Position numbers: made by a program. A DNA stretch of 40,019 nt from Escherichia phage Evi: sequence record LR597642; one strand, given 5' to 3'. This document shows, piece by piece, positions 15,001 through 18,000 of this stretch. Every line of letters begins with the position of its first letter. Within the stretch, counting starts at the first letter, position 1.

Positions 15001-18000
15001 ATAAAGGTTTGTCAGGTACGTCAGCAAGCCAAACACCAGGCTACCCAATACACCTATTGCCACCCACTGGGATGGGGAGACTTTGTCCAGCAACTGCAGT
15101 AGCCAGTATCCCGTCCCCACCGCTGACGTGGTGTATGACACACCTGTTGTGATTTTTTCCATCTGGTACATACCCCGTCTCCCGTTATCCGGAAGCTGAC
15201 AACAATAAAAAGCCACCAGTTAATTCCTGATGGCCCTGATGCATAAACGTCATAATACCTGACTGTTATGATTGACAATAATGATAATGTTTATATAGAA
15301 AGGTTCCCGATATGTGTTACATATCATTTCTCCACGGGGAATATCCCCACGCCAGCGCAGACTCTTTTACCCGTTCTCTTCTGCGCTGGCTCTTTTTTTA
15401 TTATGCTGCTGCATTTACCTCTAGCACTAAGCTTTTTATCTCAACACAATACGTGGTACTTCGTGTAACCAATATCATAACGATTAATCGACATCGAATT
15501 TCTCCCGTGTACAGGAACAGAGTTAAAAAGCCGGAATCAAATCGCAGGATGAACATCTGCCAGTAACAGGGTGTAAAAAAAGGCCGCGCCATGCGCAGCC
15601 GGAAATAAAGGGATAACGATGATAGTTTGAGAAAAACAGAAATAACACTTTTGTTGCAGTGCATGGTGCCGGGTGCCTCCCGGTGAATTCAGCCGGTGTC
15701 ACTGAACCCGCGTCGGCTTGCCTATAACATAATAAATGCTACCTACACCAGTCGCCCCTCCGCACAGGGGGATTCACCATGCAGAAGTGTTTTTAATAAA
15801 CAGCAAACAAAAAAATCAAGCATTATGCAGGCTGTTTCTTTTTATCACCGGCCACAGCAATACCACAATGCCGCAGACCAGCACCCCATCCGCCAGCACC
15901 GACATGATTCTGCTGGTGAAATCCACCATCACCACCAGAAACAGCAGGAGTGCAGCCACAGCCAGGCGCAGTTTTACCGTCACAGGTGATTCTCCAGACG
16001 AAGACCCAGAACACCGGCAATCTCTTCCAGCACCTTGCGCTCTTCCGGCTCAATTTCGCCGTCTGCCTCCGCAATGGCCACCGCCACATCCAGCACATCT
16101 TCCGCTTCACGCGTATCGTGTTTCACATCCTCAATCTCGCGTAACGCGGCACGACGACCAATTTTAAAATTGGTATCCAGCTGACCGATAATAGTTGCGC
16201 TAATCGCATTAATTTCCGAGGTAAACGCAGACAACGCAGGCTGATTACGTAAGACCTGTTCGATCTTCGCTTTCTCGGATGCCTCGCATTCACCATCTGC
16301 ATAGGCCACCAGGTATGCAGCGTTAATCACCGCCTGTGCCAGATCGCGTTTCTCAAACTTTTTAATTTCCGCTGCCGCTCTGCGGGTTTTCTTTTTGAAG
16401 ATTCCAAACATCGTGACGTTCCTTTGGGTGGGTGAGCCAGCACTCAGGAATGATCAGCCCACAGAGACAGTCACACCGACCGTTCCCTATGGCTCCCCCC
16501 CCCCCTGAAAGGCTCTGTGGTTGATATGCGCCGGGCGTGGCGCAGATACAAAAAAGGCCCGCAAAAGCGAGCCGGGAAAATAAGTGTAGCGCGTTGTACT
16601 GGAGTCGAACCAGTGACCGATTGCTTAGAAGGCAATTGCTCTGTCCTGCTGAGCTAACAACGCAGAATACCGATAATGGACCACCATCGGGGACTCGAAC
16701 CTCGTACACTCAACTTAAAGGGTTGACGCTCTTTCCTGATGAGCTAGTGGCGGTTGGTGGCCCTTGCTGGATTTGAACCAGCGACCTGGCGATTATGAGT
16801 CGCTCGCTCTCACCACTGAGCTAAAGGGCCGGGCGGAGGATAATAACGTTACGAAATCAATGTTGCAAGCATTCAAAAATCACCTGGTTAAAAATCACCC
16901 TTACCTCCTCCACCAGCGCATTCACCATGTCTATCCGAGATAAGTGGCACAAAAAAACCCGCACGGGGGCGGGTTGTAAAAAATCTTTTAACGCCAGGCA
17001 TAAAACGCCCATCGTTAGGACAAATTTACCACAGATTCGGGAAAAATCAACAACACTATCGCGTTACCCTCTTCAACTGCCGCTCCGCCCATGACTCTTC
17101 AATGTCAAACCGAACCACCAGCGTATCGTAAAAACGCTTCACTGATTTTTTCCACGTATCAAGAGTGATAGCGCTCGTCACTTTGCATATGGCATTAAAC
17201 GCCTCTGTTGACGGCAATCTTTCATAGCCACGACCACCACAACGCTGGCAGTCTCTGATAACAGGCATACCACGTTTTACCGACTCTTCACGATGAATGG
17301 CGACACCACGCCCACGGCAATCCTTACAGGCGGTGGAGACCTCACCCTTTCCCCCGCATTCAGGACAGGCAACTTTTACCACTTCCCGGACTTTTTTCCA
17401 TTCTTCCCAGTAAGACGGATACACACCCTTTGTACACTTTGCCCATACCGGCGGTTTACCATCCGGATACTGAACCTTGTTTGTAAAAACCTCGCTTTCA
17501 ATAAATTTTTCCCCTCGGCAACAAGGGCATTGCTTTTTACTCGCTGCGCTGCGGGCATAATCCTCAAAAGCATACGAAGCCATAATGCGCATCACTGCCG
17601 GTTTTATTTCTGCCGGAAGCTTTCTTAACGCCGCCACGCGATCGCACTGACTTAATGCATAATCTGCCAGTAATTCTGTTGCCCGCGCCCTGTCATTCAT
17701 ACTAATGCCCATTTTCCCCAAGAACGCAGAAAACCCCATCTCAGCCCGGTTTTGTGTCATACCCTGCGCAGCCATCACATCAGTGATGCTCAGCGCATCT
17801 TTTGATGTCGAGGCGGACGCATCAGTCAGGTCTGGCGATTTCGGGGAATAGTATTTCGGTAAATCTTCCAGTCTCATTTTTGGACCTGCCCGTCATGCAT
17901 TATTTCGTAAATCTTCACGCCCAACCGACCACCAGGAACAGGCAGTCCGCGCACAATATTAATTTCATCAAACTGCTCGTCGTCGATAAGCAACCCCGCA

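Follow-up and report, generated by a model that had tools for sequence, protein, structure and literature searches.

tciA-tciB of Escherichia phage Evi: an accessory cassette of a TerB-fold protein and a two-helix membrane protein

Two overlapping minus-strand genes, tciA and tciB, lie between the antiterminator gene Q and the lysis genes in a stretch of 40,019 nucleotides (nt) from Escherichia phage Evi (sequence record LR597642), hereafter called the window. The closest described relatives of this pair are the tciA-tciB-tciC genes of phage P1 (also present in P7, D6 and SJ46), whose function names derive from homology only and were reportedly given in the P1 genome paper of Lobocka et al. 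from 2004. TciA is homologous over its full length to the protein of P1 (42% identity to record NC_005856, and about 51% to P7, D6 and one other P1 record), and TciB is homologous to its P1 namesake as well (hidden Markov model E-value (E) 3e-22), with a common VDFTSxxxSxLxDG...WP core. In P1, tciB begins at the tciA stop and same-strand transfer RNA (tRNA) genes stand beside the cassette, as they do here. The two loci differ in that (i) P1 tciC, which encodes a one-helix protein of 35 amino acids (aa), has no counterpart in the window, where tciB is followed instead by a 26-aa non-membrane open reading frame (ORF) and an STnc100 element; and (ii) the P1 genes lie downstream of the ban promoters, whereas the pair described here belongs to a lambdoid late operon.

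Several systems with a TerB-like protein can be compared with the locus. In the ter operon (terZABCDEF), TerB (solved for Klebsiella, 2JXU) is likewise a single domain of about 150 aa of the same fold family, with both ADG...E motifs aligned, but it is encoded alongside TerC and other Ter proteins, while the phage subfamily has an MFGxFKKK tail and a coupled mini-membrane protein instead. The N-terminal domain of DjlA and YebE have a membrane-anchored TerB-like architecture, and BnzA of the Bunzi system combines predicted transmembrane helices with TerB. In DjlA, YebE/DUF533 and BnzA, the TerB-like domain sits at the inner membrane face with its anchor fused to it; in tciAB, the anchor would be a separate, coupled protein. 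The Dionysus system, for which a role in "membrane surveillance" has been proposed, consists of DinA, the TerB-like DinB and the pore-forming membrane protein DinC. It resembles the phage pair in that a TerB-like protein is encoded beside a membrane protein; it differs in having three genes, a pore-former with four transmembrane helices and a MAEBL-domain protein, and in being host-encoded. The partner genes of Shango are a helicase and an ATPase; neither these nor the partners of DinB (DinA, DinC) were found within 4 kb on either side of tciAB. No model of PADLOC v2.0.0 is related to TciA or TciB, the models covered being older than Dionysus. Finally, Shiga toxin (Stx) phages share with the window the order Q, late promoter/terminator, cargo, STnc100-like element, (nanS-p) and holin; in Stx2 phages a tRNA trio stands upstream of stx2. 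But while their cargo is a secreted AB5 toxin, that of the window is a predicted membrane-associated TerB pair.

Both overlapping ORFs are genuine genes and constitute the phage accessory cassette tciA-tciB, made of a TerB-fold protein and a two-helix membrane protein:

tciA, 15980..16411, minus strand: 143-aa TerB-family protein with an ATG start
tciB, 15816..15983 including the stop, minus strand: 55-aa DUF3927 mini-protein with a GTG start
Shine-Dalgarno sequence GGAG of tciB, 15992..15995, minus strand: inside the 3' end of tciA, 8 nt before the GTG, read from the sequence

The start of tciA is preceded by AGGA 8 nt upstream of the ATG. The genes overlap by the four letters GTGA (15983-15980), the last two bases of the tciB GTG being the first two of the tciA TGA stop. 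The GTGA overlap and the internal GGAG indicate that translation of tciB is coupled to termination on tciA. The original prediction, made from the sequence alone, had proposed a TerB-domain protein of 143 aa followed by a possible small hydrophobic ORF of 53 aa at about 15822-15983. Profile searches (Pfam, PHROG) agree with the former. As for the latter, its existence, its GTGA overlap and its translation (MTVKLRLAVAALLLFLVVMVDF...) all stand and it proves to be a conserved family (Pfam, PHROG, invariant residues) coupled to tciA, but its size had to be corrected: it comprises 55 aa and runs to 15816, with the stop codon at 15816-15818.

TciA matches the Pfam TerB family (PF05099) with 60.2 bits against a cut-off of 24.4 (E 2.9e-16), its residues 26-138 spanning positions 2-109 of the 118 in the profile, and it matches PHROG 632 from end to end (E 1.7e-69, residues 1-143 of 143). 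Its residues 14-137 align to residues 20-144 of the solved Klebsiella TerB (2JXU; E 4.4e-8), and below threshold it also matches the Pfam families DUF533 (23.9 bits) and DjlA (28.6 bits). Two parts can be told apart in the protein: (i) an N-terminal tail (residues 1-22), strongly basic (isoelectric point (pI) 11.2), with the conserved MFGxFKKK; and (ii) an acidic, helical TerB domain (residues 23-143, pI 4.4). Invariant residues among 14 diverse homologues include D23, E46, E66, D95, D117 and E124. The two ADGxxxxxE motifs (D39-G40...E46 and D117-G118...E124) are invariant or nearly so in these homologues, D39-G40 being the nearly invariant part; duplicated acidic ADG...E motifs are said to have been put forward by Anantharaman et al. 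in 2012 as a putative metal site of TerB domains. The AlphaFold2 model of the TerB part (residues 1-144) has eight helices, with a predicted local distance difference test (pLDDT) score of 76-91 in 10-residue blocks over TciA residues 21-140. When it was compared with known structures by Foldseek, only chains of the TerB-like structure 2h5n reached probability 1.0 (best E 0.015, target-normalised TM-score 0.57-0.62). Among close relatives, the ratio of nonsynonymous to synonymous polymorphism (pN/pS) of tciA is 0.03, that is, the gene is under very strong purifying selection.

TciB matches Pfam DUF3927 (PF13064) with 62.3 bits against a cut-off of 25 (E 4.3e-17), the Pfam scan returning no other family, as well as PHROG 1470, "TciB-like" (E 4e-30). 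A hydropathy scan gives two hydrophobic helices with lysine and arginine residues clustered at both ends, a topology that is predicted. Throughout 125 unique family members, R6, D21, F22, S28 and D32 are 98-99% conserved and P45 94%. Selection on tciB among close relatives is purifying and moderate (pN/pS 0.44). DUF3927 is a small family: at 50% identity, 1.84 billion representatives yield 122 clusters, nearly all of proteins of 45-65 aa and none a genuine domain fusion. A relationship of TciB to class II holins or pinholins was considered and rejected, since hhalign against the S21-type holin of the window itself gave a probability of only 0.3%.

The pairing of both genes was followed through 355 loci, gathered from phage records, four viral-contig scans started from different members of the family and a further scan across species-representative genomes. 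The first viral-contig scan returned near-identical E. coli prophages only; distant family members as lead sequences then gave diversity. These loci reduce to 189 unique TerB/partner combinations, distributed as follows:

DUF3927/TciB ORF directly downstream of TerB: 167/189 combinations
Another small membrane ORF directly downstream: 15/189 combinations
TerB without a small membrane partner: 5/189 combinations
Contig end too near to judge the partner: 2/189 combinations

In 165 of the 167 TciB-bearing combinations, TciB starts between -8 and +4 nt relative to the end of the TerB gene:

Offset -8 nt: 9 combinations
Offset -4 nt: 77 combinations
Offset -1 nt: 72 combinations
Offset 0 to +4 nt: 7 combinations

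As a control, the same pipeline was run on 1641 further ORFs of these loci with a length of 120 aa or more, and an equally tight small membrane ORF followed 1.2% of them. The adjacency of TerB and TciB is thus conserved far beyond chance. It is present in lambdoid prophages and other enterobacterial prophages, P1-like phage-plasmids, N4-like virulent podophages (Pollock) and Erwinia jumbo phages (Asesino), and it is kept in P1 and N4-like phages, where the identity of TciA to the protein of the window falls to 28-42%.

The other small membrane ORFs add to this picture. Twelve of the 15 belong to a second partner family, unrelated to TciB, from Pseudomonas- and Paracoccus-type phages: proteins of 63-73 aa with one N-terminal membrane helix followed by CxWYGYQTxRxT[KR]YA...VGC...GWxPR, for which no Pfam or PADLOC match was found and which overlap the TerB stop by 4 nt in 10/12 cases. 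That a one-helix partner without homology to TciB is likewise coupled to TerB, overlapping it by 4 nt, suggests a need for some small membrane partner, and the selected unit appears to be the TerB protein together with a co-translated small membrane protein, whichever its family. The second partner is unannotated in Pseudomonas phage AF (locus L006, 2432-2653), and it also occurs in loci L101, L113, L201-L204, L278, L280, L292 and L331.

The pair as such is already known: its genes are named, they are annotated in RefSeq and their exact sequences are public, so that nothing new is contributed to the annotation of the window. In RefSeq, an E. coli locus of 98.6% identity carries them under the names "tellurite resistance TerB family protein" and "DUF3927 family protein"; phage records label them tciA and tciB, names which derive from tciABC of P1. 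The exact TciA of the window is found on at least 985 public contigs ("TciA/TerB-like" in UniRef) and the exact TciB on at least 966 ("TciB/TerA-like"), and 672 of 5426 complete E. coli genomes (about 12%) hold at least 80% of the 1-kb region. As regards function, no experiment on tciAB was found in the literature, in agreement with the original prediction that the function of solo TerB proteins is poorly defined; reviews and genome papers repeat the homology argument or state the need for testing. In a CRISPR interference (CRISPRi) screen in P1, tciA, tciB and tciC were all non-essential.

The surroundings of the pair are those of a lambdoid late operon, with the minus-strand order DUF968, RusA, Q, three tRNA genes, tciA, tciB, about 600 nt with no convincing ORF, S21-type holin, DUF1327, lysozyme and Rz/Rz1. 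The elements that bear on its expression are these:

Q antiterminator, 17056-17877, minus strand: 273 aa, Pfam Antiterm PF03589, E 6.9e-51
Candidate late promoter, 16840..16868, minus strand: sigma-70-like match TTGCAA-17-TATTAT upstream of the tRNA genes, a consensus match only
Three tRNA genes, 16589-16830, minus strand: upstream of tciA, with CAT anticodon, Lys(UUU) and Arg(UCU) (ARAGORN, Rfam, RefSeq)
Terminator-like hairpin with T-run, 16556..16573, minus strand: between tRNA-Arg and tciA
STnc100-family small RNA (sRNA) element, 15625..15811, minus strand: Rfam RF02076, 119.9 bits against a gathering score of 47, beginning 5 nt after the tciB stop
Terminator-like hairpin of 8 pairs (7 GC) with T7, 15582..15600, minus strand: after the sRNA element, closing the tciAB-sRNA unit
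S21-type class II holin, 14956..15216, minus strand: Pfam PF04971, E 1.2e-32, where the lysis cassette begins

The match at 16840-16868 is the sole sigma-70-like one on the minus strand between Q and tciA. A sigma-70 consensus scan from the 16556-16573 terminator to tciA gave no promoter of its own for tciA, although a weak promoter or one of a non-sigma-70 type could escape such a scan. From this arrangement, tciA and tciB are predicted to be co-transcribed on the minus strand within the Q-dependent late operon, and we infer that, like stx, they owe most of their transcription to Q-modified polymerase. The stx1AB genes of an Stx1 phage are flanked by Q/pR' on one side and by a homologous STnc100-like element on the other, and in Stx2 phages the STnc100 element follows 75 nt after stx2B; the STnc100 element could be an sRNA derived from the 3' untranslated region of whatever cargo fills the slot. 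The original prediction had placed the pair in the Q-to-lysis slot of stx, which holds, the order Q/pR', cargo, STnc100 being the same in the Stx1 phage. Its description as a moron holds in part: the cassette is present or absent at a fixed slot (stx1AB being the alternative, and 672/5426 genomes carrying the region) and has a terminator downstream, but the consensus scan gave no promoter of its own. In P1, tciABC has the orientation of ban and comes after the ban promoters, which C1 controls, and the genes are transcribed when P1vir infects; in the N4-like phage Pollock, tciAB stands among replication-region genes. A role in the lytic cycle is more likely than lysogenic conversion, because no own promoter was found, because of the gene placement in P1 and Pollock, and because the pair occurs in strictly virulent phages.

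Some further features of this region deserve mention. The STnc100 element lacks the family's own terminator hairpin and has the different hairpin and T7 at 15582-15600 in its place. A weak Esr41-like match (15311-15401), with 28 bits where the gathering score is 102, was taken as chance. The leader of tciA holds a run of 11 G (C11 on the plus strand, 16495-16505), some 85-95 nt upstream of the start codon; the same leader allele has G6 at five loci and G11 at three, and the other allele has G3-G4, so this tract may be prone to slippage or sensitive to sequencing. The Q antiterminator is long, two of its stretches matching Pfam Antiterm, and it also resembles the DnaJ-type CXXCXGXG zinc-finger domain, although below threshold (29.7 bits vs 32.7). 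The lysis cassette is broken up by a DUF1327 gene (72 aa, 14733-14951, minus strand) between holin and endolysin, where a 98-aa ORF of unknown function also lies on the opposite strand (14412-14708, plus strand; PHROG 25324, E 6.8e-61).

The tRNA genes beside tciAB recur in other phages. Within 1 kb of tciAB, the density of tRNA genes is 0.379 per kb, as opposed to 0.023 per kb further out (about 16-fold), an enrichment that is uncorrected for shared ancestry among loci and carries no formal test. Nearby tRNA genes are on the same strand as tciAB in 120/120 cases, and 53 of 163 unique loci have at least one. The different tRNA sets near tciAB in lambdoid, P1-like, jumbo and other phages number at least eight, including CAT-anticodon (Ile2/Met)+Arg+Arg, Asn/Thr/Gly, Ser, Trp/Cys, Thr/Gly, Met/Ser/Gln and Ile-GAT, and a paper on D6-like plasmids places tciA and tciB "in the tRNAs region". 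In the window, the CAT-anticodon tRNA is Met according to ARAGORN, its homologue in the 98.6% identical RefSeq locus being tRNA-Ile. The middle tRNA (16677-16753, minus strand) is Lys(UUU) according to ARAGORN and scores just 37 bits as an Rfam tRNA; it matches the Arg(UCG) tRNA of related prophages in position and sequence, with the anticodon arm rewritten, and in other relatives (e.g., locus L010) the sequence at its position no longer folds as a tRNA. It is conceivable, though distinctly improbable, that tciAB and the adjoining tRNA genes form one mobile linked cassette, a two-layer guard against tRNA-targeting attack: a TerB/TciB complex would hamper anticodon-nuclease colicins or defence effectors in their import or action, and the tRNAs would replace the cleaved ones. 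If true, a solo TerB protein would for the first time have an assigned function. More mundanely, the conserved tRNA sequences may simply provide recombination joints by which the cassette passes from phage to phage.

The function tentatively proposed for the complex of TciA and TciB, as a possibility that falls some way short of probable, is that of a lytic-phase membrane guard or exclusion module. TciB would cross the inner membrane twice, forming a hairpin whose two termini are cytoplasmic; this topology is suggested by the basic residues at the termini and by the invariant D21 and D32 on either side of the outer loop. TciA, with its acidic TerB fold, its two ADG...E motifs (a putative cation site) and its strongly basic tail, would be cytoplasmic and held at the inner face of the membrane beside TciB, so that the pair would amount to a split version of the membrane-anchored TerB proteins; in the literature, TerB is regarded as a peripheral membrane protein of amphitropic type, and TerB domains are components of defence systems linked to the membrane. 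The most speculative step is that the complex, made during lytic growth, would keep the membrane of the infected cell refractory to outside insults, for example genome entry by superinfecting phages or pore-forming colicins, with no detoxification of tellurite. Such a function would recall the ter operon, whose phenotypes include phage inhibition and colicin resistance.

A number of points weigh against a membrane guard made of both proteins. Phages 434 and 2B8 have TciB but lack TciA; conversely, a Vibrio phage and Marinomonas prophages have TciA with no small membrane partner. In phage 434, tciB is preceded by a gene for an unrelated polytopic membrane protein of 247 aa; a hidden TerB was looked for there and rejected, the protein being negative by hhalign and without a Pfam hit. 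TciB can therefore exist without TciA. The physical association of TciA and TciB is putative, and no genuine TerB-DUF3927 fusion was found among the 122 representative clusters. In the AlphaFold2 model of the frameshift fusion P0124 (unpaired alignment), the TciB part is one long helix with a pLDDT of about 52, and the model yields no usable interface. In lambdoid phages, expression is late, which suits the exclusion of superinfecting phages badly, and the exclusion phenotype would be borrowed, by analogy, from the multi-gene ter operon. In PADLOC v2.0.0, TciA reaches only 14.5 bits (PDC-S48) and TciB has no match, the homologues of P1, Pollock and AF faring no better. Hence, the defence context evoked by the original prediction stands for the TerB domain, which does occur in defence systems, but extends to tciAB itself by domain analogy only, with no significant PADLOC match.

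Some individual loci have peculiarities of their own. The TciB of phage 434 (locus L003, 4067-4225) has a different N-terminus of roughly 20 residues (LFYKLCLLAVVILLLVMVMM...), suggesting that a recombination joint lies within the gene. In Vibrio phage K481 (locus L007, 2511-4003), the genes after TerB encode first a 144-aa protein of unknown function, then a 359-aa protein of the Na+/Ca2+ exchanger family (PF01699, E 3e-29), a possible hint at a cation link for phage TerB. As for natural fusions that might serve as evidence of interaction, the four candidates P0124, P0186, P0250 and P0288 were rejected as frameshift or assembly chimeras of the overlapping genes; in P0124 (197 aa) and P0186 (170 aa), TciA and TciB are joined through indels at the overlap, and one of them is labelled "zinc-finger family protein".

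Other explanations of the cassette have been considered. The pair might act in counter-defence, neutralising the membrane-surveillance immunity of the host (e.g., as a decoy for TerB-containing systems such as Ter, Shango, Bunzi or Dionysus); in a variant, it would block pore-forming abortive-infection effectors, and the infected cell would thereby be kept energised until its programmed lysis. The presence of the pair among early or middle genes of strictly virulent phages, its location in a variable accessory region of P1-like elements and the participation of TerB domains in several host defence systems are all in line with this explanation, which is nevertheless rather unlikely: at the sensitivity of PADLOC there is no sequence relation to the TerB proteins of defence systems, the placement in the lambdoid late operon is late for early-acting defences, and, to our knowledge, there is no anti-defence protein with a TerB fold. 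The pair has also been viewed as a sensor-effector suicide module, a two-gene analogue of Dionysus protecting the lysogen population, in which TciB would be a membrane-permeabilising hairpin of holin-like topology and TciA its TerB-type sensor or inhibitor. Dionysus does pair a TerB-like protein with a membrane pore-former, the two transmembrane helices and charged C-terminus of TciB are typical of class II holins, and the cassette is very common in E. coli prophages. But TciB has no profile similarity to the S21 pinholin, the consensus scan revealed no promoter for lysogenic expression, abortive infection makes little sense in virulent N4-like and jumbo phages, and TciB stands alone in phage 434, with no neighbouring TerB-like gene; such a module is, in consequence, considered quite unlikely. 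About the same low likelihood is given to a modulator of lysis timing or ion homeostasis, whereby the acidic TerB domain would buffer or sense a divalent cation at the membrane and tune holin triggering or membrane potential late in infection. This idea draws on the position of the cassette immediately upstream of the lysis genes in lambdoid phages, the conserved acidic motifs of TciA, the two invariant aspartates of TciB and the Na+/Ca2+ exchanger-family protein that comes after TerB in one Vibrio phage lineage; yet the pair is away from the lysis genes in P1, N4-like and jumbo phages, the metal site of TciA is only putative, and CRISPRi knock-down in P1 brought no fitness defect.

The explanation that database names suggest ("tellurite resistance protein"), namely lysogenic conversion through resistance to tellurite or oxidative stress, is very improbable. 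Homology to TerB of the ter operon speaks for it, together with those names and the speculation in reviews. However, tellurite resistance requires several ter genes, and no TerC, TerD, TerA or TerE gene stands beside tciAB (the neighbours being tRNAs, Q, RusA, DUF968, holin, DUF1327 and lysozyme); it is because TerC and TerD are missing, no own promoter was found in the consensus scan and the pair is present in virulent phages that this role is held to be unlikely, and authors themselves call the operon incomplete and untested. Lastly, the small ORF could be imagined to be a chance ORF beside a real TerB gene, given its mere 55 codons, its GTG start and a pN/pS of 0.44 that is weaker than the 0.03 of tciA. 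The comparative data have already refuted this option, whose likelihood is close to nil: the ORF has a Pfam match at E 4e-17, its conservation at the protein level reaches P1, N4-like and jumbo phages, the adjacency amounts to 167/189 as against 1.2% in controls, and some of its polar residues are invariant.

The TerB domain is found in the Shango, Bunzi and Dionysus defence systems. With one TerB domain and one membrane hairpin of 50-60 residues, tciAB is the smallest conserved TerB unit seen in this analysis. The cassette is thus of modest interest, as a convenient two-gene system in which to ask what a TerB domain does at the membrane.

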